From: an uncultured bacterium
GTDB lineage: Bacteria > Omnitrophota > Omnitrophia > Omnitrophales > Aquincolibacteriaceae
Reading direction: 5' to 3'
Length of the DNA: 64,000 nucleotides
NCBI GenBank assembly: GCA_964482725.1
Contig: CAYZYT010000004.1
Location: 104,063 to 168,062, forward strand
A model generated the notes under the pieces. It made no database searches. It worked only from the letters and a program-made list of their open reading frames with translations, and was not told the DNA's origin. Shown in pieces: positions 541-23,266 of this stretch; the first letter of the stretch is position 1; each line of letters starts with the position of its first letter. The translations under genes and the position numbers were made by a program.

Positions 541-3500
541 ATGAGGGAGAGCTCTATTTTAAAACGAGTGATTAGCCTGGTCGTCGTTGTTTGCTTCCTG
601 ACAACGAACGCGATGGCTATGCCTGGTCAAACCCTGGATGGAGGATGGGGGATGGCGGGTGTAGAAAAAGCAAAAGCCATCTCTGTTCCCTCTGGGCTCG
701 GAAGTGTCGTGGAAACATATGACGCCTCAAAACAGGATGGCGGAAGGCGGAGGGAGGATGGCAACAAACTAAAAACCGAAGCTCCGTCCACCATCCTCCA
801 TCCTTCCCCCAGATTTGTTATTTACATCCAAGACGCGCACGACTCGCTCGAGGCTCAGGAAAATATCGCCGCCATGGTCCGGCACTGCGTGAAGGAATAC
901 GGCGTCAAAACCGTCTACGAAGAAGGTTATGAAGGCCCGGTCCCGACCGACAAGCTCTTTGGATCGATCCAGGATCCGGTTCTTAAGGAAAAGATCTCTT
1001 ACTACCTGATGGACAAGCTCCGCATCGGCGGCGCGGAGTATGCGCATATCAATCGGGCGGCGGAGCCGCCCTCCCGGGAAACGGCTAACGATGAACGGTT
1101 AACGATGCGTTCAGCGTTCCCCGTTCCCCGTTCCCCGGAAAGCGATTTTCAGCTTGTAGGTGCCGATTCGATCAGCCTCCATCTTGAGAACATCCGCGCC
1201 TACGAGCAGGCGGCGAAGAACCGTACAGGCGTGACGCAAGACATTCAGCGTATCCGCAAAGAACTTCAGAAGCTGGCTGACAAGAATTTCCCGAAGGAAA
1301 TGAAAGAATGGTTGAAGCTCAAAGAACGGTATCAGAACGGACAGCTGCCGCTCGTTGAATACTTGGCAAGAACCATGAAAATCCGGGAGACGGATGGAGG
1401 ATGGAGGATGGCGAAGGGCGTAAAGCCAGGTTTGCCGCCATCCGCCATCCACCCTCCGGCCCCCAGCGTTGAAGCCCTCCTCTCCGGTGATCCGAAAGCC
1501 ATCAAACAGATCGATCTGATGAAATTGATCGGGGAGATCCAAGCTCTCGAGAACGAGATCGTTGAGGCAGGTCTCCCGGCAGAAAGGGACCGGAAAACGT
1601 ACGGTTACTTCGAGAGCGTCATGCTCCTTGAAAAACTCAACAAGATCGAGCTCAGCCACGAGGAATTCACGTTCCTCAAAGATTCGCTCGAAGGCCTCAA
1701 GACCGAAGATGTTGCTCGCTTTATCGCGAAGGAAACCGGTCACTCGCTCGTACTTTTCAAGTCTTGGGAAAATCTAATTGCCGATTCGATCCATTTCTAC
1801 GAGCTGGCGAAGAAGCGCGATCAGGCAATCGAGAAAATCCTGACCAAGACTACAGACGAGAGACTAGAGACCAGCGACAAAAAAAGTCTCCTGTCTCCAG
1901 TCTCCGGTCTCGAGTCTCCAAAAACCAAAGCGGATATCTCCGTTTTGGTTTTTGGGGGTTTCCACAAAGAAGCCATCAAGCGGATCCTGAAGGAAAAAGG
2001 CATCAGCTACGTCATTTTGTCACCCTCGATCGGAAATCCCAGCAAGCGGCATGAGGATTATTACCGAATGTTGATGGGCGGGGGGAGGCATTCGTTTGAA
2101 CGAATGCAGGGTATCGGAGGGAGGATGGAGGATGGAGTAAAACAGAAAACAAAAGGTTTCTCGCCCTCCGCCAACCGTGGCGAGAGCGTTTCTCGCCAAA
2201 GCACCCGCGCTCAATCCGTTTTCACGATGAACTACGGTTCCACCGTCGATCTTCTTTCCAAAACCGCCGCGCCATTCCGCAACGAACTTCGGCAGGATTT
2301 TATTTTAAAGATGGACCTCGCTATTCAGGGACGGTTCTTGAATGCCGGGGCTGAGGCCAAAGAACCGTCCCTGGTTGACAATTCTGCCAAACGCTCCGAA
2401 GTGCGGCAAATGTTGCAACAAGGCCCGGCAACCAAGCGCGACGGATTTATTTCCGCAGCCTGGAAAAAGCAGCGGGCGAAGCTCCTGCAAAGCGCCAATT
2501 ACCGGCTGCTGGAATACATGATTCACCAGACCGACCTTTCCGAGCGTCAGAAAAAAGGGTACCTCTATCTTTGGGAAACGATGATGCTTTTGATCCCGCT
2601 CACCAACGGAGTCAAGATCCCCGCAAGCGCTTGGGCGGTGTCTTTGGCGATCGCTCATCCTGCTTTTACGATCCTTCCGGCGATCATTTGGTGCACCTTG
2701 AGTTCGGTCCTTCGCGCCATTTTTGTGATACCGCCTTTCGCTTTTTACTATCGCTTCAGGGTCAGGGAGCTCGTGCTGGCGAACTTTCTTCCGTTCGGCG
2801 CCGCTTTTGTCGCCGTGCCGACGCAGGTGCTTGCGATCATGCGCGAAGAATACAAGCGGTTCGGGGACCTGTCTTTTAAACAGCTGGCGAAGCTTCACGA
2901 GACCGTGATCCGAAAAGTTCTTGAGGAAAATCCCAAGGATGAAGCGCTGCTCGCGCGGACTCCGGAGCTGACTTTCCGGCTGCTCGAATGGCGTTCCCGG
3001 AAGTACGGGGCCGATGCGGCAAAAGCGCTGCTGCTTCCGGCAAGGCTCACGGACCTTCTTCAAGAGGCTGACCCGAGCAAAGCTGCGTTGTCTGCACAAC
3101 GAGCAACGGCGTTAGCGAAAACGGTCATCTTCTTTCCTCCGTCAGGGTTTCACCAGGCCGGCTCAAGGGGGAGCGCTCTTTATGAAAATTCCGCGACCAT
3201 CAAGCGGCTTTACGAGAGAGTCAATCAAAAGGCGCGGGAAATTCTCGGGGATCCTGCCTTCGATATTTTTGACGTTTCCTTCAACCAGACCGAAGAGGAT
3301 TATTTGCGGGGTAACAATGCCGTCGCGGTGCATCTGGCCATTGCAACCCATCACATGGCCTTATGGGAAAGCCTGAAGGAAAAATATCCGGAAGCCGGCC
3401 GGCCCGGAGCGGTTCTTGGCGCGAGCCGGGGAGCGGATGCGGCCTATTATGCGAGCGGAGCGCTCGGCTTGGAAGATACCGTCGAGCTTGCGGTCCGGAA

Positions 3501-6500
3501 CATTCAGTTCTTGAAAAAAGCGTCCGAGCTTTCGGGTTCCCGGAGGATCGGAAGTGTTTCCCGTCTTTCCCGGGAAACATTGGAGGCCCTGCTAGCTCCG
3601 GAAGAAGGCGCGATCGCGGTTCAATATTCGAAAAATCTTTTCGCTGTTTCTTACAGGAAAGACTCTTTCGAAAAACTCGAACAAGATATCAAATCGGCGG
3701 GAGGCGTTCTCAGAAAAACGCTCCTCAGCGTGTCGAGCCATGATCCTCATCTTCTCACGCCGGAAACAAAGCCGCTCTTTGAAGAATACCAAGCGTTCCT
3801 CGAGGGATTTAAAGCGCGCATTCGTCTGCCCTCTCTGAAGCTTTTCTCGGCACTCGAGCCAGGGAAAGAGCTTAAGACGCCCGAAGACATCCTGAGCGAA
3901 GAGGTGCGTTACACCACCCAGGCGATTCCGCTGGACCGCTCTTTCGCCGACCTCTTGCAAGGAGCGGGACTGCAGAATGTTTTGGGGCTCGGCTATGAAA
4001 AGGATTATTTCATCCAGGCCCTTCAAAAGGAAGGGACGGTGTCCGGGGATGTTCGTGTGGCGCAAGCGGCCGACCTCGCGGATTATGGATCTTTTTGGAA
4101 TCTTTTCTCTCGGACAGAAAACGTAGGCGCAGCCGGTACCGTACGCTCCGAAGTGCGGGCCGCCAATGATCCGAAAGATATATTCGAAGGCGAGCCTCGC
4201 CTCTCCGTCGAGAGGCGGGATGGAAATGTTCTTTCAGGGGATGCCCGAACCCTCTCCGGCGGAAGGGTTTTGAGTTGGGATGAGGCCGTGCAGCACGCCC
4301 CGGAACTAGCCCGAAGGGTGGCTCTGAGCGGAGGCTTTGCCGGTTTTTTTACGCATCTTGGCAGAGCCTGGAATGATCCCTACAGGGAAATCGACCCAGC
4401 GATCGTCGAGCGTTATTTTGAAAACGTGCGAGCCTGGGGTCGCAAGGAAAATGGCGTCGTTTTCATTCTTGGCGGAGTTCCGGAAAAAATCGGCGAGCTT
4501 TTTACGCAGGCGGTGGTAATTCATATCCCCAATGTCCCTGACAACGATCCGATCCCGTTGATCGCCGGGAAGGAATCTTTTGATCCCATGGTTGAGCTGA
4601 TGAAAAAGATAGGTGTTCGCGGGATTCTTCCCTATGGCGGAGAGTATGCCCGCTTCGATGAACAAGGGCGGGTGTTACAAGGGTTTGATCCGGGGCTTGG
4701 TTGCGCAGGCGGACCGCTTTTTATTTTGAGCCGCTTTTTTGCTGTTCACGTATACCCTCAACTGCTTTTGGGAGGTTTGATCAATAAGCACTTGGGTGTG
4801 GCGGGTCTTCCACTTGAAACCGGAAAATATCTCACGGAACCCCGCTCGGAAATCCGGAATATCCCAGCAGGTTCGAAGCTTTCGCGACGGGAAGCTTTCC
4901 GGTGGGCGGCCTTATTCGATGAAGAGTTGAGTCAACGGGGACGCGCGCTCGTGTCGGCAGCGACGAAAGAAAAACTTTCCGTGAAGAGGGATACCCTTTT
5001 AGGGGGCGTGAATCGCTACAGCGCTCCGGAGAAAACCGCCATCCTTTCTTTTCGCGACAAGGATTCTCTGGGCCAGATCTATCTTCTTTTTCTGGATCGG
5101 GAAAACCGCCCCGCAGGCTATGGGTCTCTTTACAGCTCCGGAAAGGACAAGCCCGTCGTCGTATCCTTCCACATCTTTTCGGAATTCAGAGGCCGCGGGC
5201 TCGGCGAGGATTTCTGGAATGCGATCAAAAGCTTTCTCAAACAAAACGGCATGGGGTATGTCCCTGAGAAAGTTTACTTCCCGCCCGTTTCATGGTTTGC
5301 GGAGCGCGGTCTGGGGGACGATTTCAAAAATTCAGGCGTCCAGGAATTTCTGGTCAAAATGGGTTTTAAGCCTGTCGGAGTGAAGCCTTCCGCCACGCCC
5401 GGAGATGTGGCCTTTCTTTATAACTTGGGCGATGGGGAAAAGCCTCAGGCCGGAGTCGCGCGAAGTGAGGCCCGGTCTTCAAACGAAAGCCGGGAGCAGC
5501 TGACGGACGCAGGGATGGATCAATACGCCTTTTTTTACTGGAACAATAATAGTCAGTTCGATGCCATCCCGTACACGCTTGAAAAGCCGTTGTGGGAGTG
5601 GAGGGCCGGGGATATTTTTGTTGTCGAAAGCAGAGAAAAAACCGAGACCTATCTGCTTTTGGAGCAAACGGATTTTGGCGTTGTGACCTTTACTTCGCCT
5701 AGGGATTTTGGAGAGCCTGAAAGACGGAATATCCGTGAGTGGAGGATGGACTTTGGGCGAGATCTCGACCGGGGTGCCAGGATCACGGTCCGAAGGTATT
5801 ACGATGCCGGCAAGATCCCGACACTGCTCCATTTTGCGAATGAGGGACGTTTAGAGCCGGACACGCTCCGAGCTTATTACAAGCGGATCATTCTCGGGGT
5901 TTTGATTATCGCCGCGCCTCCGGTTTTGGGGCTGTATATGTTTGGCCTTTTAAAGCCGTGGTTCATCTCGATGGTTTTAGGAGTTCTGGCGCTGGCTCTT
6001 CTGGCGGGTCCCGTTCTTTTCCGATTTAAAGCGGGTAGTTTTATTTTCGATCTTAACCAAGCGCTTCCTTTCCGGATCCCGCCGCCGGGGACGAAACTTT
6101 CCAAGTTTGAATCCTGGAGAATGAATTTCCCGTCCTCTTCCGCCCGATCGGAAGCGCGTCTCTCGCGAGGGACAAGCCCGGAGCCTACGGCCGCCGGAGA
6201 ACAGGCTCTGGGAAAAGGTCCCCGGGAGGCGGAATGGCCCGAAGTCAGCCGCCAGTTCAGATCCCTGAATCCCTACAATATTCACAATATGCCGAGCGCC
6301 GTGCTTTCGGAATTGGCGTCGGAGATAGCGAACAAGTTAAACGTTTATGTTTTTGTCAGGAAAAATCACAGCGGCAAACGATGGATGAGTCAGGTTATGG
6401 AGATTTTGAGTCTGAGGATCGTTTATGACCAGGATATCGAAGTTTACGTGAAAGGTCGCCAGACTCCGGAAGTTTTAAACGCTACGTTGGACCTGGTTGA

Positions 6501-9500
6501 AAGGGCCATGCAGGATTGGAAAATGCTCGAGGAGTCGACGAAGGAAAATCCTCTTTATGACGCCTATCTTCGGGAGATCGACCAGATCGCGCAGGGATCT
6601 GCGACCCGTACTTTGAAAGCAGCTTATCGGACTTTTTCAGATGCGGCGATTAGCCGCGCGATCGATGCGGTGGATTATAACCACGGAGAGATCGATCCTG
6701 CGACGGGGGAAGCCAAACGGGATGAAGTCACGGATGCGGCCTTCCGCCGCTTGGACGCGCTCTATGAGGCCGTGCCTGGAGTGATCACGGTCCCGCGGAG
6801 TGAGTTCATGGGCTTCTTCGGAAAACGCCAGCCGGAATTCGCAGCGAATAAAGACAGGCTCATCAAACCCTTCTCGGCCTTGAGCGACGCAGAAAAAACC
6901 GCGCTTGTTCGGTGGAATGAAATCCGCCGTTCAGAAGCGCGGGATGTCCCGGAAGTGGCGCAGACGCAAGGGAGCCGGGAGGAGCAGGAAGACCGGTTCG
7001 TGAATGAAAAGATCTCGCTTGGTGCGGTTCCGCACGGGGAAGGTAGGCTTCTGGCCGTGATGGATGGACATGGCGGCGATGAGGTCTCGGAAATGTTGCG
7101 GGCGAATCTCGAGCGCGTTTTTAAAGACTCTATGCTCCGGAAAAACGGAGATGTCCAGCAAGCCTTACAAGAAGTTTTTGGTCGCTTACAAAAGATGGCT
7201 GCGGGATCGGAGTCGGGGTCCACGCTTTCGCTGGCCTATGTTCCGGAAGATGAAAAAGCCGCTTATGTCATGATCGTCGGCGATTCTCCGGTTTATGTCC
7301 GGAAGAACGGAAGGCTTATTTCCTTTCCGGAGCACAATCTTTCGAATCCCGTGGAAGTGATCACGCAGCAACAAAGGGCGTCGAGCGCCGGGAAAAAATT
7401 CCGCGTCGATTATGATTTTAAAAGGGAGAATGGAAAGGATCTGCTACGGAAAATCGGAACGACCGAGAATACCAGTCTTGCCATCACGCGCGCCTTCGGG
7501 AATAAATCCTTTCAAGGTCTTCTGATCGGCGAACCTTCCATTCTGAAGACCGATCTGAGCGACGCGCAGGGGCCGGTCGAGGTCCTTCTCGGCACGGATG
7601 GGATCTATGGTTTTCATGGGAATGACTCGAAGATTCAAAGAGACGCGAGGGCTGGCTATCTTCTTTCCAGAGGGACTGATGCGGCGGGGATCGTCCAGTC
7701 GGCCGGCAGCGCAAATGCTTCCGACAATGTAACGGTTCTCCTCTGGAAATTCGATCCCAACACCGTCCGCTCCGAGATGCGGCAGGACATCCATAGTCCT
7801 GCACGCACTGGTGCTGGGACCAGGGAAGTCCCAGCCGAGATGCGGCAGGACATCCATAGTCCTGCACGCACTGGTGCTGGGACCAAGGAAGTCCCAGCCG
7901 AGCTGCGCGGCGCGGAAAAGCCCGATGATCGGGAGTCCTGGACCCGGTTTTTGAATACCTATGCCCCGGCCCTGTCAGGGTTTGGCGGAACTTCCTTGGA
8001 GCAAGTCTGGAGGGAAATTTTCGAAAACACGCCGGAACATGCGCGAATCCTTGATCTGGCGACCGGGAACGGAGCGGTGGCGGGACTGGCCGCCGCCATG
8101 GCCGCGAAATTTTTTGAGGTTTGGGCCATCGATTCCGCCGAGCCCAAGGTCATTCCTCAGGGCGTCAACTTCCGAAAGGCGTCGATGGAGACATTTTCCG
8201 GGACGACGGATATGCCGGCCGATCTGGACCTTGTGACGGGACAATTTGCGATCGAATACGGAGAGACAGACCGGGTTCTCGGAGAAATTCATCGCGCCAT
8301 GAAAGCGGGAGGCAAAGGCGTTTTCATCATCCATCACAAAAACTCGTTCTGGGCGGAGCGGGCGAAATCCCTTTTGGAGCAGACAGACTGGGTGAAGAAG
8401 GCCGGGATCTTTGAAAGGATACGGCAATGGGTTCAAGATCCGTCCGAAGAGAAGCGAGGGCGATTCGAAGCGGTTCTGGACGTGCTCCGATCTGAAATAA
8501 GCAAACGAAGAGCCCAAAAAAGTGAAAATGACGTTCTGTCGAGTATTTTCCGTATCGCAAATACGACCTTTGAGGCGGTCCGGAATGGAAAACTTTCCGG
8601 ATTGGCCGAGCAGATCCAAGAAGTCGAGGAACAGTGGAACAATACGGTCTGGGTGAAGGAGCATATGATCCACGCCGCCTTTGACGGAGAGGCTATGGCC
8701 CGCTTCAAAACGGCGATTGAAGCGCGCGGTTTCCAGGTGGTAGGGATCGAGCCCTGGCAGATCCGGGGAACAATCCGGACGGAAGAGCAGGACCTGCTTG
8801 TCGGCTGGCGCGTCGAGATCCAAAAGCCCGGAATTTTATCTCCGGAAACCCGGCAGGAGAGGGATTGGATCAAGGAAGTCCAGTGGCCGGATCCGGAGGC
8901 GGCGCTTCGAGCGAATGATGGGCCATTCCATATCCCAAGCAAAGAGGATGAGGCGCTACAGATTTTTCTCGACTCCGGAAAGGGGACGCCGGACTATGCG
9001 TTAAACCAAAAAGCGGAATACCTCGGGAAATTATTAAATATCCTCGGAGCGTTGGACAAGACGCGTCTTTGGTGGGGAACCGGAAACGAAGAAAACTGGT
9101 CTGGCTGGGTGAAACATTCTTTCGCGAATTATTTGAACAACCTGCTGGCCCTCGTGGGGTTTTCTTTGCGAAACGAAGATCCTTTGTCGGAACAATCCGC
9201 CAAGGACCTCAAAGAGCAAATAGAATTTGCGGATGCGATATGGAGCGCCCGCAAGGAGCTCGCGGCATCTGTCGCCAACAATTTTAAGAACTACCCCGAA
9301 ATACTTCAGCCGGCTCCGGAGGGCAAAGGTCTCTCAAAGGAAAATACGTTTTCGAGGATCGAACTTAACTTTGCGTTCCCGCACAAAGTGTTTGTCGCAA
9401 GTCCCAATGCTGAGCGGAATCGCGCCATTTATGCGGAGGCCCTCCGCCGCATGGAAGGCCCCTTTCAGGAGATCCTCAAGCTGGCCCGGGAGCAACTTTC

Positions 9501-12500
9501 GGAGTATGAAAAAGGAACTGCCTTGCCCGCGGAACCTAAAAAAGATAAACGCTCCGAGGTTCGTGATCCCCAGGCATTCTTGGAAAACACCGGTCCGGTC
9601 GATGCCGAGCAGTTTGAACGGATGATCCTCGGAAAAAGATTCGATGACCTTGCTCCGGAACAGCGGGCTCGTTTTATCGAGTTTATTCGTTCCAGGAATC
9701 TGCATAATTTGGCGCCTTCTTTACAACGTTTGATCCTCGACCACGTTCAGCGTCACGCCGGTGAAGAGAACGACGAGATGAAAGCTCTCTGGAGCTGCAC
9801 GCTTCGCCTTGAACCGGGCAGCGCGGAGATCTATCGCCAAGAAGTTAGCATCCTCCGGAGTTCCGTGGCGCCGCTTGCAAAAAAAGTGTCTGAAGGGTAC
9901 TCGATCGTGACGGTCGAAGAATCCTCGAAAGGGATCCGGACTCAAACAAATCTCTCGAAAACAAAGACCGAAGATCCTTCTGCGGAGGTTTGGGAATTTC
10001 TGATCCCGGACCAAGTGGAGACCTCGGGCGGTGTTTATACGATCGCGAAACCGGGAACGGACGCCGTGGTGATCGGCTCCGGGGGTTCCGGAAGCGTGGT
10101 CATCCGGGCTCGAAAACAGGACGGTACGCCCGTGGCCATGAAGATCATTAAAGAAGACGGGAAGAGTATGCACCGCTTTTTCCTCGAATACCTGATGACG
10201 CTTCGCTTCAAAGGCGATCCGAACATTATTCAGGTCTATGATTCCGGCCGCTATGTGGTCCAGGCCCAGAGATTTTATTTTATTATGGAAGAATACGGAG
10301 AACGCACGCTTGCCGACGAGGTGCGGGCTCGTTCTAAGAAGCTTGGGGAAGGCGTGGAAATTTTCTCCCCGCCCGAAAGACGTAAGATCGCCAACGAGAT
10401 GATCGACATTCTGCAGACCTTGTACGCCGCGCGGATCCTGCACCGGGACGTCAAAGCTGACAATCTGTTCTATTCGGGAGGACGTTTGAAGCTGGGGGAT
10501 TTCGGGATCGCCCGCTGCTTGCCCCAGGAAAAAGATGAAATAAATTCCGATGCGCTTGAGGGAACACCGACGCATATCCCCGTCGAATCCTTTGCCGGTG
10601 CGAGCGGGTTCTACAACGATCTTTACGAGTTTGCGATGACCATGGCTTTTCTGGATCCCTCGACTCTCGCAGACGATTTCGGCGCGACGACCCGTGGTCA
10701 GATGCGGAGGGTGTCCGTTCCCACCAGCATGTTCACGAAGAACCTCGCCGGCTTGGCCCAAACGGATGCGGCGTACAAAAAATTCTACGAGATGCGGGAA
10801 TTCAGCAAAAAAACCCTGGCCGGAACGCTTGTCAGGCTTGAACGGAGCCAAGATCCATTTACCCAGCTTGTCGTACGACCGATCCTTGACCGGGAACATT
10901 ACCAGGACTCTCCGCGCAATGCACAGGAGCTGGATCAACTGGCCGCCTCTGTTTTTTTTATCGAAAAGACAACAGATCTGATCCGCGAAGGGCAGCCGGC
11001 AGAAGCGCGGAGGTATGTCGCAGCGTTGCTTGGAGAGGGGAGCACGTTCGCTACTTATCCGATCGTTCGGGAAAAAGTCGAAGAACTCCGTCTTGCCGCG
11101 GAAGCAAGTTCAGTTCGTTCCGAGATGAGGAACGGCAAGACCTCAACAAAGCCAGCCATGATCGAGCGGAAGGCCGAGGGAAAAGGAAGGATCTGGATCG
11201 CCGAACTGAAATATCCGAGAAAAATGCTGTCTCTGGGGGTGCGTTATGCCGGGAAAACGCTCAAGCTCTATCCTTATGATGAGGACTGGAAGAAAGGGAC
11301 GCTGATCTTTGACGAAGAAGAGCCGATCGCTGTTTATGTCTCCCAAGAGGATCTTTTTTCCGTGCTTGAAGAGGAGACAACCACCGACGCGAAAGGACGT
11401 TTTATCCGTGAGGGTTTGCGTTATAACCTCGGTGAAAATAAGGCCCATCTAAAGATCAGCCTCCGGCCTTTTGAAACGCCGGACTGGAAGACCGGTGTGA
11501 GGATTTTTGAAGGTCAGGCCGAGATCGCTTATCACGACGCGAAAAGGAACCGCACGGTCAACCTGATCTCCATCGCGCCCTTTAGACGTTCGGGGGCTCG
11601 GGAGGTCGGGACAGCGGACCTCCGGGACGTGCCTCACGTGCACCGGAAAGATCTCTGGAAGACGGGTTTGTATGGGAGCGAAGAGTTAAAGCAGATCCTA
11701 AAAGCCATGCTTGAGTCGGAAGACATTGTTTTCGATGAGCGGAGATATAAGGTTAGCCTTTATGCGCTTCCGGCCGAAGAGCTTGTTGCGCTGATGGATT
11801 ATCTTCGCGCTCAAAGGATCCGCGTTAACGGATATTTATATCGGGAACTTCTTCAAGAACATCAGGAAGACATGGCCCGGTATATCGAAAAGACGAGAGC
11901 CGCGGGTAGCGATCTGAAATATCTCGGTGCCCCTGCCTACCAGTTGTATGCCGATCTTTTGCCAGCCGCCGAAGAAGTGAACCCGAGCCTTTATGTTGAT
12001 AGCCAGCCGCCCCGATATCACGACGACGTCTTCAGCTCTCTAAAAAAAGAATACAGGGCACAGCTTCAAGAGATCCGGCGGCAGGGAGACAAGATCGGAC
12101 TGGCGGTTCACGGAGTGCGCGAGTGGAAATGGCGCGACATGTCCGGGCAAAGCCGGGACCGGGAGATCGGCATGGATGACGGCAAAATGAGATTTTTGAA
12201 CGTGCTCTTGGAGGGCAGGATCCGGAATTTTACGATGCCCTTCTCTTTTTCCAAGCTGAAGGTGGATGTCGGTTATCTGGATACGGAACACGACACGAAT
12301 TTCAGCGACCGGGGAGATGCCGGGACCTATGGCCCTTACTATATCCTTCTGGACCCGAGGTGGAGGCATGACGCGCAGGGAGGCATCGGCGAAGAGCACC
12401 ATAAATATTATCTTGTGCCGAATGACTCGATGCGAAAGTTCCTGACCGGCGGGCTCGAACAGGCTCTTGCGGGCGGGCTGATCGATCCGGAGCGGTTGGA

Positions 12501-15500
12501 GGTTTTGAAAAGCAAGATCATGACCTATCGCGAGTATGCCGACATCCTCTCCGGGCGCGGCGCAGCGAGCCGGGCGGAATTGCGGGAAGAGAAGGCTCCG
12601 AACCGTGAACGAAAAATGGAAAAAATCCGGCAGCGTCCCTCGAGGCGTTCAGACGGGAAAGAAAGTAAATGGGATGTCTTTGACCGGTTCGTGCAGAAGG
12701 TGAACCTTCTTAATTTTGAAGAGGTCAAGCAAACGGAAGAGCTTAAGAGCTTGAGCAAAAAGCGGGAGCTTCTTGTAAGTTTTGGGATCCCGGAGGCTGC
12801 GGAAGTCGAAGCAAAATATCTCATAGGCGCGATCGGCAAGCTATTCAAGAAAATGCAAGCCGAAGGGGCGGGCCGCCAGCAACCTATTATTTGGACGGAT
12901 TTTTTAAGCTACGGCGGGCAGGGGCGATATCTGACGGCTTACAAGGATGAAAATCCCGAAGGCGGTTGGATCGTCAAGGTCGCGGCCAGCGAAGAAAGCA
13001 GCCGGTACATGGATCTCTATTCTCTGGAGGGGACGCGTCTGGCTCTAGAGCGCCTCGGCGGCGGTCTCGCAGCCAGCACGATGATCATCGACGGGAGAAA
13101 GAACGGAAAGGATTTCTTTTTCCGGTCGGGAAAGCGTGCGATGTATGAAAGCGTCGCGATCGTTCAGGAAAAGTTGTTACCCCTCGTGGAATATTTGAAG
13201 CAGGTCGGTCGGCGCGGCGCCTCGGACCGGGAAGTTTCTGAGGCGATCGGGTACATGGAAAAATACAAACAGCTTGCGATCGCGATGTACCGGCGGGGCA
13301 TTGTGGATGCGGACAATTTTAACGTGGTCGGCAACTATGGTATCCGGCCCTCGGACAAAAGCCTCGCTATTTTTGATCTCGGCGATCTTACCGACAGCTT
13401 AAGGAGCGCACAATCCTTTGTCGCGGAACTGGACAGCTTTAATGAGGATAGGGCGGATGATTCCGCCGAGATCGACGGGGTCCTGCTGGATCCGAAAGTC
13501 TCTCGGGCGTTTACGGACAACCCCTTCCGGACAGAGGATTTTGTTCTTCATGGCAAGGATCTGTTCGGTTCGGAATTCGATCCCAAAAAACATGGCATGA
13601 CCTTTCCGTTATCGGAAGACGAGGTCCGTCGCATGTTCCTGGGGAGTTCGATCCGGGAGCCCTCTCAAGACCGTCGCTCAGAAATTCGAATTTCTGGAGC
13701 GAACAAAAAGCTAGCGCGAAAGGAAGACCGTCGCGCTGAACTGCGCGATGCAGAGACCTGGAGAGGGCGCGGGGCCGAATCGCCGCTCCGGCTGGAGAAG
13801 GTGACATTATTAAATGAACTGGCAGCAAAAGTCCCCGAAGGGACGAAACGTACTTTCAGAGCGCTGGCCAATGCTTCCGGCGGCCGTTACTCCTATTCCG
13901 CGATCCGCGGCATAGCTGTGTATTATGCGATCACTCCGGAAGAGGGAGGTTTTGAGCCGGAAGAAATATGGACAAGAAAAGAGTGGGTTGAAAATCTCCC
14001 GAAGGGAGCCCGCGCGCTGAGTAGGGGGCAAAGGCCTACTGCCGAAAACATTTCAGCCGCGTTAAAGGAAAAATTCGGCATCGTTAGATCGCCTGCCCAG
14101 ATCCGCGAAGCCCTATCTTTTCATAAGATCACTTATCGAGAAGTCGAAATGGTTCGCGATCTCAGCATTGATCCAAGAAACGATGACGCATGGAAGGAGT
14201 TTTTTAAAAGGCATGTCCAAACTCTAGGGCCCGGGCTTCACGCTGTTTCGGAGCTCGCAGAAAAACTTTCGTCAGTCGCGGCGAATAAAAAACTCGAGGC
14301 GGGGTTTATCGGGATCGGCGCAAGCCAGATCGAAAGGATCATGATCTTACACCGTCTTTCTTACGAAGAACTGGGTCTGAAGAAGGTCAGGCCTGCTCCG
14401 AAAACGCAGGACGAATGGATTTTGCTGGTCCGAGAACTGGTCGACAAAATCCCGGCGGGAGTAAAAAAGACGCTTGGCAATGCAGCTCAGGCGTCCGGGG
14501 GTCTATTCACTTACAGCCGGCTCTATCACGCCATGAGCGACCATGATATTTCGTACAACGAGGTCGGACTTGAAACGCCTCGGAGACAACCTCGCCGGTC
14601 GCGCGCCGACTGGCTGGCTTACTTCAAGGAATTGGCGGCGGCTATTCCGGAAGGTTTCCGTAAGGTGCTCGGCAACGCCGCGGAATTTTCCGAAGGCGCT
14701 GTGACGTTTTCTCAACTTCTCAAGGCCAAAGTGAATCATGGATTCTCTTACGAAGAGATCGGGCTGGAGCGTTTTTACCAGATCCTGGGCCTGGTTCCGG
14801 AATCGGTGGATTGGCAGATCCAGACAAGTTATGAAAAAGGCCGCAGCGGAAAAGGGCGATGGGAAACGGTGAGGACTAAGGCCGTCGGACCTCGCATACT
14901 CGGTCCCGACGAAGAAGCTTCCCGCCAGGAACGAATGGACCACCTCGAAAAAACGATCGTCCTTTTAGGCTCTGACGCCGGGAAAATGATCGATCAGGTG
15001 CTGGATGCCTTGGCTCAGGGCGCGAGCATGGACAATCTTTCCGATCTATCGGAAAAAAGCGACGTTGATCCGCAGGCGCTTCGAGAAATGATGGGTCGTC
15101 TCCGGAAAATCTACCACCGGCTTGTTGCCGGCCAACCGATCCCTCAGGAGTGGATCGGTGAAAGTGAAACCCAAGATTACCCCACAGGTGCACCTACGGG
15201 GTTGTCTCAGGGAGTTCTTTCGAGGTCCGAAGTGCGGAATGGGCAGGCGTTGAAAATGTGGGGAGCCTGGAAAACGAAAGAAGAAGCGTTGATCGATCTG
15301 GAGCTTAAAAAATCGCAGGCGATGCTCGCGATGCATCCGTGGAGCTTCCTCGCCTTGCTTAACGGGAAAGAGAATCCGAGGCTTTCGGGTGAGATCGGAG
15401 AGCTTTTGAACCGTTGTTTTGAGATGCTGGCGTGGGCGGTTGGGCAATTTCACGGCCAGCCGGTCGAGGTGCTTCAAATGGAAGAGGCCCGGAAGCTGGA

Positions 15501-18500
15501 AAGCGCGGCCCGGCAGTACCGTGTTCTTCTTGAGGTCTTGCACGGGCTCGACAAAGGGAAGCTCCCGTTCGACAAAATTGTCAGCCAGAACGACTTTGAA
15601 ACCGTCCGGCAATACACTTTTTCAGACAACGGAACCCTGTATCCGGTCCGCGTCATCTGCCGGTGGGAATCCGCCGAAGCAAAAGAGGCAAGGCTTGCCG
15701 TGAATGTCCTTTTGCCGCTGGGGTCCTCTTCTGAGGAGGACATCGCCCGGCACAAGAAGGGGCCCGGGCTTCCGCCGCTTTCCGACAGGCAAATGATCTC
15801 TCTGCGGATCGATTGGAGCAATAGGACCGAACGGGCGGAAATGGATATTTCCGGAGGTTCAAACGAAAAACTTCCTTTTGCGCGTAGGCATTGGGTCCTG
15901 AACGACTTGTCCCGACAGGCGACTTTCAGGAACTTTGTTCTTGGGATGGACCAAAAGCTCGCGAAGCTTTCCTCGGCTTCTGCGCCCGTTCCATCTGAAA
16001 AACATCGTTCTGAGATGAGGGAAGTCTTTAAGCTTGGGGGCGAGTTCACGCGCGAGACGATGGAGCGGATGATCCGCGAGCTGGCCGGACAACAGAAAGT
16101 CGATTTTGAGACGGAGGAGGGCGACAGGTTCACCGTCCATTACACTTTTCAGGATCAAGGCTATCAACAGGGCTGGTACCAGCCTTTCCGCGCCGAAGGT
16201 GAACGTTTCCGGCTCCTACTGACCCGGCATGTTGGCGCGAGCGAAGATCAGGTTGCTTTTGCGAATGCCAAACTTGTCGAACGGGACGGGAAGAAAGTCG
16301 CTGTCATGGATCATGGGTTCGGGAAAGAAGAGATCCTGAAGGGAAAGAGCATTTTAATGGATCGGGAAGTCGTCGCTTTGCAGACCGAGGACCGGTATGT
16401 TGGGTTGTTCAAAGGGATCGGGACGGCGATGATGCAACTCGCATGCGGCGTGGCACGAGCCCATGGGGCGGATGTGCTTTACGCCGAATCCATTGCTAGC
16501 AAGGAATTGGAATCCTTTTATGTTCAGGCCGGCGGTGTCATGGAAGATTATCAGGCGGTTTTTGAGGTTATGGATTCCTCCGAGGACGGGAACGCTGCTT
16601 CTACTTATTTCAGCACGAGACAACGCGCAAAATTCGATTTAAAAAGCCTTCCTCAGCTGGAACGTTTCCAGATTGAGAAGATTAGTTCCGACGCAAAACT
16701 TTCCGGGCACCGCGTACTCGCCTTATCCGACGAGGTGCAGAAGCATAATCCAAGCCCTGCGGATCTCCCAAGCAATTTTGAGATGAATCGTTCGGAAGTG
16801 CGGGGGAAGAATATTAATCGGAAAATTGTTGTTGCGATGACGCCGGAAGCGGAAAAACGTGCCCGGCGACTCCAGCAAGCGCTTAAACTTTTGGCGACGA
16901 CGTATCCTGAAGGTGTGACTTATGAGCTTGTTGCCAAAACCATGAACGAGCTTCCCAGGGATCCGGAACCTTCTCTTTCGTGGTATGCGCTCGCGAAATG
17001 GACCGAAGCCCATCCGGACCTTCCTTCGGTCGTTTTATTGAGAAAAATGCAGCGGGCTTCTTCGGCGCTCCAGGACGCGCTGAGCGATCTTGTAAAGCGA
17101 CCCGCAAAACAGAATTGGACCCCAGATCTTAAAAAGCTCCGGCACGACCTTCTTGGGAAAGCCCTGGAGTTGAACCTCCACGGAGCTTTTGTTTTTCATC
17201 CCTACACGGACGAGCGATACGTTTGGCGCGTCCTGGGATTCATGGAAGATGGGTGGAAAGCGGTATTTGAGGACATTCAAAGCAAAGAGGGCCAACTCTT
17301 GATCACGCTGCGTCTTGAAAAAGAAGGCGAGGAAGTTTTCCTGAGAACCTTTGCTGTAGGAAAAGAGAAACGGGCTTTGCTGGGCGTGCTCGGCAAAAAA
17401 GGTCAGCCGACAAAACAAGCCCTGGATATTCTGCCGCTGGAAGACAAGACCATTTATGGAGAAGAGAAAAAAGCCTACCGCATTCTTTCGGAACTTGTCG
17501 GCAGGCCGGAAGGTTACGCCTGGCAGGCGGATGAAGATAAATTAAACGATTTGATCGGGGAGGAGCTCGGCGAAGTTTCTCCACGAGGTGTTTCGAGCTT
17601 TTCGCCAGCCAAGTATTTCGCCTACCGGTGGTTTCTTTTGGGAACGCGTGAAGCGGGATGGAGCGCCAGGATCATGGAGGCGGGGATCCGGAGCGCCGCG
17701 CCTGTTTTTAAAGTTAAATTTTACAGAGAGGACGGGAAAAAAGAAGCTTTCGAAAAGGAATATCAACTAGGGCCTAAGCGGAAAGATCTGAAATATACCG
17801 GCCCCCGGAAAAACACGGCGCCTCTTTCCATTTGGGACATCGTGCCATTGAATGATGCGGGAGTTTTTGCGCCGGAACGACCCGCCCAAGAAAAAATAAC
17901 GGAAGCGCTCGCGGCCCTTCTGGCGGAAGGTGCGGTGGTCTCGCAGGCATTACTTGCCGAAAAAGCGGATGTTGGGGAGAACACCGTTGTCCGCATCAAA
18001 AAAGAAAACGCGGTTCTCGGGAAAAAGATCGATGAAGCCGTAGCGACCTCGCTTTATAAGAAGATCGAAGCTTTTCTCAAAGATCATCCCGGGGCCAAGC
18101 AAAAAGATATTGCGGAAGCGATCGGCGTGAGCCCGAGTGCGATCGTCTACTATAAGAGCACGAATGAAGAAATCCGCAAATTGATCGAAGTGAATCAGCC
18201 GGTTCAGGATAAAAAAGCTCTCTCGCCAGGAAAGGGGTCTCAGACGAAGGAAACAAGATCTGCCCCAAAGACAGAAGCACCGCGGAAAGAAAAAAAGATC
18301 CCTCAGCCCAGAGTTTCCCCCGCGCAAGACAAGCCCGCCATTCCCGAGGAGAAACCTGAAGAGGGAAAAGCGGCAAAACCCACGGAACTCAAGGGTGTCA
18401 CCGCCGTTCCCGAGATCCAAACGTACGCCATGCTTGATGAGGGGATTGTGACGCTTTTTGAAAGACGGTACGCTCCGATTTTGGAAGAACTTTCGGACCA

Positions 18501-21500
18501 GGCGGTGGATGAACCTTCGGAAACGGTCGAAAAAAGCGAAGCGCTTCTCGGGCGGCTGGATCTTGTTTTGAAAAATTTTGAAAAGTCTTCTCCGACGCTG
18601 TTGGGGAGGCTGAAAAATATACGGGGCAAATTGGAGAGCATTCAGTCTCTGGCCCGCGTGAACGATGATGCGGGTTTTGATGGCTCCGAGGGCGAATCGC
18701 GCGACCCGTCCCGTTCGGAAGTTCGGACCGCGCCGGATCTAACAATAAAGGCAGAGGACAGAACGCGCTTCCTGAAAAAGAATCGCGGGAAAGACCTGAA
18801 CGAGATGGTGAAAAGCATGATCCGGGACGCAACACGGTACTCCGAAGAAGGCGCGGCGCGGGTTCTTTATGCGGAGCCGAAGGAGCCTGTTTTTATTCCT
18901 GAAAAATATGATGCTTATCTTGGCTACAGTGCTTTGGATACGGCGCTTTGGGAAATTTTCGGGAATGCGCTTAAATATTCTCCCAAAGAAAAACCGATCC
19001 GGATCGCGCTTGAAAGGGAACCCGGGCACATTCTCTTGAAGGTCTCAGATTCAGGCATTGGGATATCCGCTGAAGAAATGAAACATGCCGGGACAGTAGG
19101 TTGGCGCGGAGAGCGGGCCCAGGCCTATTTCAAACTTGGCGCCGGAAGAGGGATCGCTCAGACAAAAGAGATCATCGAAAGGATCTACGGCGGTTCGGTA
19201 ACGATTGAAAGCCCCGGGGAAAACCAAGGGACGATCGTTACCATAACGCTCCCTCTGAGCGATTCAGCGGGACGGGCAAAGTTGGATTCAGACAAGCTCC
19301 GCTACAAAGACACAGCGGACTTTATGGCCCGACACAGCGTGATAGAGAAGGGCGTGGTCTATACGGTTCGGGATATTCTCGACCGGGAGTTGCCATCCGC
19401 GGTTTATGCGCTTGAAAAGGTCCAGGAATTACGCCGGCGAATGGACGCATCCGGTAAGCGAGAAACGCCGCTTATCCTTTGGCAGAATATGAGCTTGGGG
19501 CAGTTCTTTCCTTATTTTAGCGAAACCGTTAAAACGGAGCTGGGAGTCTTGGAGCTGTCCGAAGATGTTTCGAAATGGCAAGCCCAGATCGCGGATCTTC
19601 AGCCGGGCAAAAGCCGCTTCATTCTGATCAAACAAAAAATAGCTTCGAGCTTCCCGGGGGAGAATAAAGATTACGCGAATTATCCGGAAGAGGAGTGGGA
19701 CCCGTCGGTGGAGACTTGGGGGGCGAAGGAAATAGAGAGGATCGCCAAGACTTTGCGCGCTCCCGTTGTGATGGTGGATCATACGGGGAAGGAATTCTCA
19801 AACGGACAAAGGCTCTTGGCGGAGCACGCGCAGCGAAGCGGAATTAAAACGCATTGGATGAATAGCCGCTTGAGCGAGGACCTTGGGAAGGATAAAGATC
19901 TTTGGAGCTCGGACAGTCTCCTCGTGCTGCTCAATGCGAATGCAGATCCAGAGAGAAAGAAATCCTTATTCGATGATAGTGAGAATTTTTCAAAAACCCG
20001 GCGGATCCTCTCGGGGATCATTAACGGAGAAAAGATAAACTTCGTCGACGCACTTATGGAGGCCTATGCGGCCGCTACGCTCCAGGCTCAAGAAGCTCGT
20101 CGCTCGGAAATGCGTTTGCCCGCGAGCGGGGGGAGAAAATCCTCCGGAGCGGTGACTTTTCTCAAGAAAAAGGAAGTCCCGGGAGTCGTTACGGCAGTTT
20201 CTTTCGAAGGAAAACCGTATGCGCTGTCCGCGATCGGGACGATGCTGCAGATCCGGGATCAATTCAATTTTGGCATTCTTCTTTTCAAGCTGATTCCCGA
20301 ACGCCAGCGCAATGCCTTTATCGCTTCTTTGCCGCGGGAGACTCAGGAAAGGGTTCAAGCCTACCGTCGCGCACCCGCGGCCGGCGCTACACGGCTTATG
20401 GTCGAGGTCCTCAAAAACGAGGATTTTACGGCGCAGATCAAAGCCAATGCGGCGGTCCAGATTGGGATCGGGCAGGACCTAGCTACGAGTGTCGTGAGGT
20501 TCGAGGTCGAACAAGTCTCAGATGAAAAAGCCGTTTTCAGGATCTTTCTCGGGGAAGTGCCGGTCGAATATGACGTCAGCCTCGGGAAAACCTACATGGT
20601 GGCCCGGGAGAAGGTTTTGGAGGAGCCGCTCGATGCCGCCGAACTTTTTACTGTGTCGTCCGATGTCCTTTCCGCGGGCAAGCACTTTTCTTTCCGGATG
20701 TTCCTGAAAGATAATGCGACCTGGATCCATATGGTTGATTATAAGTCTACGAACGGAACGGTTCTTTGGGCGGAGGTTTATCCGAAGAAAGTGGATTATC
20801 CGAGGCGCAAACAGGACCGGGCGATCTGCGAGAAAGAAATTCGAAAAATGCTGGAGGACTTTTCGGACAAAATGCGGGCCGATGGCCTCGCGACGGACCC
20901 GGAGACGAAAGATGTGAAGTACCAGGAGGCCTTAAACGAGGCGGCCTCGCTCTATATCGAGAGTTCCAAGTTTCACGAACTGGAAGAGCTGAGGAAAAAA
21001 TTGATCGAGAACTACTTTTTTTCCAATACCAGCTCTTCTCTCGGGGCTTCGACGAGGAGCCAGTACGCCCTTGAAACGCTGGAATCTTTACTGGAGGATG
21101 ACCGGATCTCGGTTTGGGAGCCCATCCTCGAGGCGGCTGTTAAATACGTCCGGTACTTTGTTCATCTGGTCCGTCTTCTCAAAACCGAAAAGCTCAAGCT
21201 CGCCCCGTCTAAGCTCCAGTACGAGATGGTGCGCGCTCTTTCCAAAATAAACGGGAAGGAAACAGAGGTCCCGGAAGCGTCCAAATTCAACAAAGAGATC
21301 TTCGGCAAAACCCTCCGCATCGACACCTTGCCGAGGTCTGAAGCCCGGACTTCCCGAACCCCGGATCAGACCCCGGCTCTAAACCCCGGGTCTGCGGCGG
21401 GTGCGAAGCGGGAAGAATCTGGACAAAGTGTTCGCAACGCCCTGGTCGTGCGGGACCGGATCGAGAAACTCACGGGCGCCGGGACGATCCTGATGAGTCG

Positions 21501-22171: not shown

Positions 22172-23266
22172 ATGGGCTTCAAATGCGGTATTGTCGGTCT
22201 TCCAAACGTCGGTAAATCGACTATTTTTAATGCGATCGCCAAGGCGCATGCTGCGGCGTCCAACTATCCTTTCTGCACGATCGAACCGAACGTCGGCATG
22301 GTGCCGGTCCCGGATCCGCGTCTCTGGGAGCTGAGCAAACTCTTCAAGCCGCAAAAGACGACGCCGACTACGGTGGAATTTTATGATATCGCGGGGCTCG
22401 TCGCCGGAGCCTCCAAAGGTGAAGGCCTCGGGAACCAGTTCCTAGGGCATATAAAGGAAGTCGAAGCCATTCTCCACGTCGTCCGCTGCTTTGAGGACCC
22501 CAACATTGTGCACGTCTCGGGCACGATCGATCCTTCGCGTGATATCGATGTGATCGACACAGAGCTTTGTCTTAAGGACCTGGACACCATCAATGCCCGC
22601 TACAATAAGACCGAAAAACTGGCGAAGGCCGGCGATAAGGTGTCGAAGGAGCAAATGCCGGTCTATGAGAAAGTGAAAAAAGCGCTTGAGGACGGGACGC
22701 CGCTCCGCAATATCGGGCTGATCGAAGAAGAGAGGGCGCTTGTCAAAGATCTGGCGTTCCTGACGCTTAAAACCGTACTGTACTGCGCGAACGTTGCCGA
22801 AAAAGATCTGCCTGGCGGTGGGCCGTTCGTGAATCTGTTGCGCCAGCGCGCGGCCAAAGAGAGCGCCGAAGTGGTGGTGATCTCCGGGAAAGTCGAATCT
22901 GAATTGATCGATCTTTCCGAAGAAGATCAGCAGGTATTCCTGAAAGATTTGGGCCTTGAAGAACCGGGGTTGAATTCATTGATCCGGACCGGCTATAAAG
23001 CACTTCAGCTCATTACCTATTTTACGGCCGGTGAAAAGGAAGTGCGCGCCTGGACCGTTCGCAAAGGTTCCAAGGCGCCGCAAGCCGCGGGCGTGATCCA
23101 TTCCGATTTTGAGCGCGGGTTCATTCGCGCCGAAGTAATGAACTATGAAGATCTTCTGAAATACGGTTCCCAGGCCGCAGTCAAAGAAAAAGGTCTTCTT
23201 CGCGTCGAAGGTAAGGAATACGTGACGCAAGACGGCGATGTGATGCTTTTCCGTTTTTCAGTTTAA
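22172..23266 (+). CDS. ychF: Redox-regulated ribosome-associated ATPase YchF.
   Basis: [22 protein letters not shown]-loop and a TGS-like C-terminal domain. Confidence 0.9.

Follow-up and report, generated by a model that had tools for sequence, protein, structure and literature searches.

We analysed a 64,000-nucleotide (nt) stretch of contig CAYZYT010000004.1 (assembly GCA_964482725.1) from an uncultured Omnitrophota bacterium, hereafter the window, whose first 22 kb are occupied by a single uninterrupted open reading frame (ORF) of 7,147 amino acids (aa). This giant protein carries a domain related to FabD, the malonyl-CoA:acyl carrier protein transacylase (MCAT), directly behind a membrane-anchor unit. 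A preliminary description of the DNA had placed a FabD/polyketide synthase (PKS)-type acyltransferase (AT) domain at 3130-3800, following a multi-transmembrane segment of the giant protein. Such a domain does lie there, with hydrophobic segments (aa 674-767) just upstream, but the earlier coordinates cover only its first two thirds: it extends from ~3124 to ~4035. The features that bear on its interpretation are as follows.

541..21984, + strand: giant ORF, 7,147 aa, encoding the modular Omnitrophota-type giant in which the FabD-like domain sits
541..2391, + strand: conserved N-terminal domain, aa 1-617, with a hydrophobic signal or anchor segment at aa 9-29
2392..2406, + strand: R-S-E-V-R motif opening the AT module, aa 618-622
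2461..3066, + strand: membrane-anchor unit, aa 641-842, with hydrophobic helices at aa 674-767 (nt 2560-2841) by hydropathy
3124..4035, + strand: FabD-like acyltransferase-fold domain, aa 862-1165, composed of a large alpha/beta subdomain and a ferredoxin-like small subdomain
3418..3432, + strand: nucleophile elbow G-A-S-R-G, aa 960-964, with Ser962 (nt 3424-3426) equivalent to FabD Ser92
3496..3501, + strand: Arg986-Asn987, with Asn987 standing where FabD has its malonyl-binding Arg117, and the arginine one residue earlier
3739..3741, + strand: His1067, within S-S-H-D-P, equivalent to FabD His201
4144..4158, + strand: R-S-E-V-R motif closing the AT module, aa 1202-1206

The domain starts in FabD-like fashion with VIFFPPSGFHQ (aa 862-872, nt 3124-3156) and continues in the same + frame of the giant ORF through GAVLGASRGADAAYYASGALGLEDTVELAVRN (aa 956-987, nt 3406-3501, frame 1) and LLSVSSHDP (aa 1061-1069, nt 3721-3747). 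The Pfam family Acyl_transf_1 (PF00698) matched it over profile positions 17-193 of 319 with an E-value of 1.3e-5 and a score of 25.3 bits, below the gathering threshold of 32.7 bits. NCBIfam models for MdcH (TIGR03131; E 1.3e-11), type I PKS (1.7e-9), and FabD (TIGR00128; 6e-8) also matched, with scores far under the equivalog cut-offs (44 vs 297.9 bits for MdcH; 32.5 vs 260.9 bits for FabD). All 33 phmmer matches among the PDB sequences were malonyl transacylases or PKS AT domains; the best was the AT of mycocerosic acid synthase (MAS; E 3.2e-5), in whose alignment RPGAVLGASRGADAAYYASGALGLED marks a striking local match round the nucleophile. A search of 5.8 billion proteins returned 32 matches, all of them FabDs of ~295 aa (25-33% identity, at most 90% query coverage, database-scale E 3e-6), and hhalign comparison of the single sequence with a FabD-only profile gave 97% probability (E 8e-11, 251 columns). 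Overall identity to FabDs is 15-29%, colinear over ~300 residues. Since the Pfam score lies below the gathering threshold, the case for homology is carried by the agreement among several independent searches.

Structure prediction gave a consistent picture. The AlphaFold2 (AF2) model of the domain (predicted local distance difference test score, pLDDT, 75; predicted template modelling score, pTM, 0.80) has the two-subdomain fold of the FabD superfamily, including an inserted beta-alpha-beta-beta-alpha-beta small subdomain at aa ~1001-1059. Foldseek matched it to MCAT structures (6smd, 3hjv, 1mla, and others) with E 5e-16 and template modelling (TM) scores of 0.7-0.79; the model was built from a FabD alignment, which makes the fold match partly circular and a corroboration rather than an independent test. 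An Acyl_transf_1 profile search and a fold prediction were the checks proposed in the preliminary description: the predicted fold is MCAT-like and the profile match has a low E-value, while its bit score below the gathering threshold formally counts on the negative side. Taken together, the PDB, NCBIfam, hhalign, and 5.8-billion-protein searches and the fold match agree, and aa 862-1165 is, as judged from homology and predicted fold, a highly diverged member of the FabD/PKS acyltransferase superfamily. A patatin/cPLA2-type lipase was also considered and was dropped, as no search returned a match to those families.

Both catalytic residues named in the preliminary description, the nucleophilic serine of G-A-S-R-G and the distal histidine of LLSVSSHDP, are retained: Ser962 was aligned with FabD Ser92 by MAFFT and hhalign, and His1067 with FabD His201 by MAFFT, hhalign, and phmmer. 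At the elbow the AF2 model places a strand (957-960), the serine, and a helix (963-972), and the elbow glycines Gly960 and Gly964 are kept, the GHSLG of FabD being GASRG here. Among the 89 positions that are invariant in twelve FabDs, 27 are conserved, mostly glycines and prolines together with Ser92 and Arg190. The replaced residues include FabD Gln11 (Ser868 in this domain), Gln63 (His931), His91 (Ala961), Leu93 (Arg963), Arg117 (Asn987, with Arg at 986), Met121 (Leu991), Asn160 (Gln1028), Asn162 (Ser1030), Gln166 (Leu1033), and Gln250 (Tyr1124). FabD binds the malonyl carboxylate and the oxyanion through Arg117, Gln11, and Gln63; the roles of Gln11 and Gln250 in FabD are played by backbone atoms. 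Because Arg117, Gln11, and Gln63 are all replaced, malonyl specificity is not expected. The retention of the Ser-His dyad and the elbow glycines in a sequence that otherwise shares 18-29% identity with FabDs favours retained catalysis.

The AT module as a whole (aa 618-1206) consists of the anchor part and the AT-like part, enclosed between the two RSEVR motifs. The anchor unit has a sole relative among the 5.8 billion proteins, with 39% identity over 209 aa. This relative (P0210) is a complete free-standing ORF of 251 aa on a JGI contig (L013, 463-1218), and its C-terminus, ending in LVRSEIGSWKG before the stop, falls where the AT-like domain starts in the giant. The existence of such a stand-alone homologue suggests kinship between the cassettes of the giant and independent genes. 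The AT-like domain is held ~95 residues beyond the final helix of the anchor, and a two-helix hairpin at aa 1780-1831 alone separates it from modules that depend on ATP, S-adenosylmethionine (SAM), or acetyl-CoA. Because the ATP-, SAM-, and acetyl-CoA-dependent modules of the protein must be cytoplasmic and only this hairpin intervenes, the AT-like domain most likely lies on the same, cytoplasmic side.

No phosphopantetheine-binding (PP-binding) or acyl carrier protein (ACP) domain, ketosynthase (KS), ketoreductase (KR), or other domain of fatty-acid synthesis (FAS) or PKS systems was found in the giant by Pfam scans (E ≤ 0.1 for the whole protein, E ≤ 1 for modules scanned singly). Scanning for motifs turned up no GxDS site of the ACP type in the giant outside its unrelated N-terminal domain, and no fab or acp (acpP) gene is present among the 20 neighbouring window ORFs scanned. 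The search for an ACP-like segment that had been proposed earlier was therefore negative, by both the relaxed-E Pfam scans of the giant and the motif scan. Module 3 (aa 1203-1435), which lies directly C-terminal of the AT module and was checked as a possible partner, had no Pfam match and gave only noise against PDB sequences. Since neither a carrier protein nor a condensing enzyme was found in the giant or among the 20 neighbouring ORFs scanned, the AT-like domain is not part of a FAS/PKS line, in keeping with the earlier proposal of a chemistry other than fatty-acid synthesis; an ACP acting in trans may be encoded elsewhere in the genome.

The best explanation, which we hold with moderate confidence, is that the module works as a membrane-tethered cassette of the FabD superfamily that retains Ser-His catalysis, either acyl transfer or acyl hydrolysis, acts on a substrate other than malonyl, relies on an acceptor supplied in trans, and is independent of FAS and PKS. 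A FabD-like domain would have fused with a small membrane anchor, and the pair would form one cassette of the giant (aa 618-1206). Ser962 would form an acyl-O-serine intermediate from an acyl-thioester donor, either acyl-CoA or acyl-ACP, and the acyl group would then pass to the acceptor in trans or to water. The reaction would probably be sited at the cytoplasmic face of the membrane.

Several observations weigh against this explanation. The bit scores below the Pfam gathering threshold and the NCBIfam cut-offs, together with the partial circularity of the fold match, bear on the assignment itself. At the active site, 62 of the 89 FabD-invariant positions are replaced, and both His91 of the GHSxG signature and the NxNxPGQ motif of the small subdomain are lost. 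The AF2 model is least confident in the loop that carries His1067, where pLDDT is below 50 just before the histidine, and in the N-terminal oxyanion loop, and the topology was derived from hydropathy and the placement of the cytoplasmic modules. Finally, the cassette is an orphan, with no orthologue to show conservation of Ser962 and His1067. The AT-like domain was absent from the best 150 relatives listed (414 thousand aa; phmmer and a custom hidden Markov model), from loci L001-L010 (tblastn), and from scans of genome contigs and metagenome contigs. The search of 5.8 billion proteins yielded no orthologue, FabDs only; it returned nothing longer than ~1,100 aa though 60%-identical giants exist, and it thus sees giants only as assembly fragments.

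The rival that survives best, which is possible although we lean against it, is a pseudoenzyme or scaffold: the fold would be kept for structure, docking, or binding of acyl-CoA or another ligand, no acyl transfer would take place, and the serine and histidine would persist by descent or for binding. This rival is supported by the extent of replacement, which takes in Gln11, Arg117, and Gln250, three of the five residues in the classical active site, besides His91 and the small-subdomain motif. It also gains from the negative search for an acceptor carrier protein in the giant and from the orphan status of the cassette, for which conservation is seen nowhere else. On the other hand, both chemically indispensable residues and the two elbow glycines are retained despite the low identity, and loss of the Gln11 and Gln250 side chains need not disable the enzyme, since it is backbone atoms that act in FabD.

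Far less probable is an ordinary housekeeping MCAT (FabD) fused into the giant. The best database matches are indeed FabDs, and MdcH and FabD are among the NCBIfam matches, but the scores reach only a fraction of either equivalog cut-off, the malonate-binding Arg117, Gln11, and Gln63 are all replaced, and neither fab genes nor an ACP occur among the 20 neighbouring ORFs scanned. In addition, the cassette is missing from the best 150 related giants and so does not provide a housekeeping function conserved in the family. Chance similarity, with no FabD-related domain at all, is effectively refuted: the Pfam score below gathering speaks for it, whereas five independent searches converge, colinear over 250-300 residues, with 33 of 33 PDB matches and 32 of 32 database matches in one family.

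Over aa 1-600, the host protein shares 58-65% identity with P0033-P0036 and with loci L001-L005 and L010 (51% in L006); the figure is 58-62% for proteins from Candidatus Omnitrophota metagenome-assembled genomes and for proteins of 1.8-7.6 thousand aa. The genomes in GTDB that carry this N-terminal domain are metagenome-assembled genomes of Candidatus Omnitrophota/Omnitrophica. At E<1e-30, the N-terminal ~600-aa domain recurs in at least 290 protein clusters (50% identity), mostly proteins of 1-7.6 thousand aa, and it contains the motifs YIQDAHDSLEAQEN, EEGYEGP, and GGAEYAHINR. This N-terminal module is common to the closest relatives and the C-terminal module (aa ~6940-7147) to some of them, while the internal modules form a mosaic in which the same cassettes occur at differing positions, in differing order, and in differing number among the relatives (P0033-P0040 and L001-L010). 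By its homologous N-terminal domain, its Omnitrophota relatives, and its mosaic cassettes, the host is assigned to a large Omnitrophota family of giant proteins built from modules. An artefactual ORF made of fused genes was ruled out, as the 21.4-kb frame is unbroken and the N- and C-terminal modules match full-length relatives.

The copy of the N-terminal domain in this protein (aa 1-617) has no significant Pfam, NCBIfam, or PDB match by sequence or profile, and the domain belongs to no Pfam family. Its AF2 model (pLDDT 77) gave EreC (erythromycin esterase), BcR135, and ChaN as top Foldseek matches, all non-significant. Separately, one of 47 homologues of the domain matches Pfam Cofac_haem_bdg, of the Tiki superfamily (8.5e-5). 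An Ere/ChaN/Tiki-like fold is a weak lead. A 7-bp repeat, AGTCTCC (5.1 copies, 79% matches, window 1885-1920), lies in a poorly conserved, low-confidence stretch of this domain at aa ~449-460.

A short peptide motif, R-[S/A]-E-x-R, is strongly enriched in the giant, with 19 copies vs 0.6 expected and x mostly V, L, M, A, or I. The copies are located at aa 618, 1202, 1435, 1641, 1869, 2130, 2410, 3004, 3526, 4011, 4379, 4398, 4895, 5156, 5417, 6058, 6521, 6932, and 7127. The other window ORFs counted contain one copy in 10,615 aa, and the best 150 relatives listed contain 903 copies, or 2.2 per 1,000 aa. None of the 19 lies inside a Pfam-matched domain; they are always found between recognisable domains, and where BLAST finds segments in common with relatives, the segment borders coincide with them (e.g., 1640-1868, 2130-2414, and 6520-6937). 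Since the flanks of the motif are unconserved and its codons vary, the signal acts at the peptide level. The motif could separate modules, serve as a processing site, or act in docking; a literature search on it gave only unrelated results. A 63-bp unit is duplicated in tandem at window 7772-7907 (2.2 copies, 97% identical). The duplication starts 4 nt into the RSEMR at aa 2410, from the serine codon, and the linker peptide it repeats is (S/A)EMRQDIHSPARTGAGT(R/K)EVP. It points to slippage or recombination in the recent past at this boundary between modules.

These features allow a more far-reaching reading, which we regard as unlikely. The giant would be a cassette array or polyprotein with R-[S/A]-E-x-R as its processing or exchange points, and the AT module would be released or would act as an autonomous membrane-anchored enzyme of ~585 aa. 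It would represent a new branch of the FabD superfamily, one with GASRG at its elbow and a substrate other than malonyl, and it would have been recruited from free-standing genes, to which the 251-aa homologue of the anchor points. If so, the AT module might acylate a lipid, a protein, or a prey- or host-derived molecule at the membrane.

The remaining recognised modules of the giant, all on the + strand, are listed below.

aa ~1505-1571, + strand: GNAT, 22.5 bits vs a gathering threshold of 20.7
aa 1903-1987 (window 6247-6501), + strand: HPr-like domain (phosphocarrier of the phosphotransferase system), 25.7 vs a gathering threshold of 23 bits when the module was scanned alone
aa 2140-2356, + strand: PP2C, by Pfam scan
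aa ~2490-2610, + strand: SAM methyltransferase, by Pfam scan
aa ~3177-3350, + strand: Ser/Thr kinase, by Pfam scan
aa ~5845, + strand: helix-turn-helix (HTH), by Pfam scan
aa ~6131-6240, + strand: HATPase_c, by Pfam scan

The preliminary description had counted two GNAT-like modules and suggested that they and the acyltransferase point to acyl or acetyl modification chemistry. The one at aa ~1505-1571 stands, whereas the putative second (aa ~5290-5320, window 16009-16791) reached only 12.9 bits against Acetyltransf_1 (E 0.14) and lacks statistical support. The independent shuffling of cassettes within the protein family argues against obligate cooperation between the AT and GNAT modules. The HPr-like domain adjoins the PP2C, methyltransferase, and Ser/Thr kinase modules.

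Outside the giant, the scan of 20 neighbouring ORFs revealed genes of an ordinary chromosomal kind, among them YchF, a BACON/Ig protein, PepA, RsmB, MutY, aconitase, citrate synthase, a two-component system, and phosphate-transport components. The YchF gene (window 22172-23266) adjoins the giant ORF, and an identical protein is encoded on short Logan contigs (L011 and L012, from SRR12261224 and SRR12261227). This identity shows that the organism is present in public reads, in which the giant gene is fragmented.

To our knowledge, FabD-fold acyltransferases occur almost exclusively in fatty-acid, polyketide, and malonate-decarboxylase systems, where they work with acyl carrier proteins. E. coli FabD (1mla) shares with the present domain the two-subdomain fold (Foldseek TM scores 0.70/0.78), the serine of G-x-S-x-G, and the distal histidine; in contrast to FabD, this domain sits behind a membrane anchor in a 7,147-aa protein, with no ACP partner or fab operon in view. 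MdcH (TIGR03131) is its best curated-family match. The ATs of type I PKS and MAS (7agp, 9d2y) resemble it in being embedded in very large multi-domain polypeptides, and the MAS AT is also the best PDB match. They differ in their surroundings: here no KS, ACP, KR, dehydratase (DH), or thioesterase (TE) was found, the neighbours are signalling and modifying enzyme modules, and the substrate-selecting motifs of PKS ATs (HAFH/YASH, Arg117) are not present in the domain. PksD (8avz) and VinK (5czc) are structural matches with TM scores of 0.65-0.69. As these two enzymes illustrate, the FabD fold supports hydrolysis or non-malonyl transfer with the same Ser-His dyad. Unlike the present domain, they have their own ACP-bound substrates in PKS pathways and keep GHSxG; no such pathway context was found here.

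What was known already, then, is the fold, the family, and the giant multi-enzyme proteins of Omnitrophota. What is new is the membrane-anchored cassette context without an ACP, the GASRG site without Arg117, Gln11, and Gln63, and the orphan status. If active, a membrane-tethered copy with an altered elbow and neither carrier protein nor malonyl-binding residues would extend the chemistry known for the fold, and it would enlarge the repertoire of Omnitrophota giants, which is little understood, by the handling of lipids or acyl groups. As a single orphan cassette at present, it is of limited general importance; the boundary motif and the cassette shuffling may bear more widely on how giant genes are built and possibly processed.

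Among published Omnitrophota giants, neither an acyltransferase or acyl domain nor PF00698 is mentioned in the main texts of bioRxiv 10.1101/2023.11.21.568195 and 10.64898/2026.06.07.730766 or in one supplement of the latter. At 7.1 thousand aa, the present giant is far smaller than the proteins of 30-147 thousand aa in the focus of West-Roberts et al. (2023) and Nielsen & Lui (2026), and, unlike the published giants, it is without HEAT, TPR, or glycosyltransferase content. It nevertheless resembles the 'archaeovorins' of West-Roberts et al. (2023) and the 'multi-enzyme cluster' class of Nielsen & Lui (2026) in its N-terminal hydrophobic segment, its internal transmembrane segments, and its many unrelated enzyme domains. 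Pfam Module 1 of Nielsen & Lui (2026; bioRxiv 10.64898/2026.06.07.730766) includes the trio of methyltransferase, HATPase, and GNAT, and the present giant likewise has a methyltransferase, HATPase_c, and GNAT.

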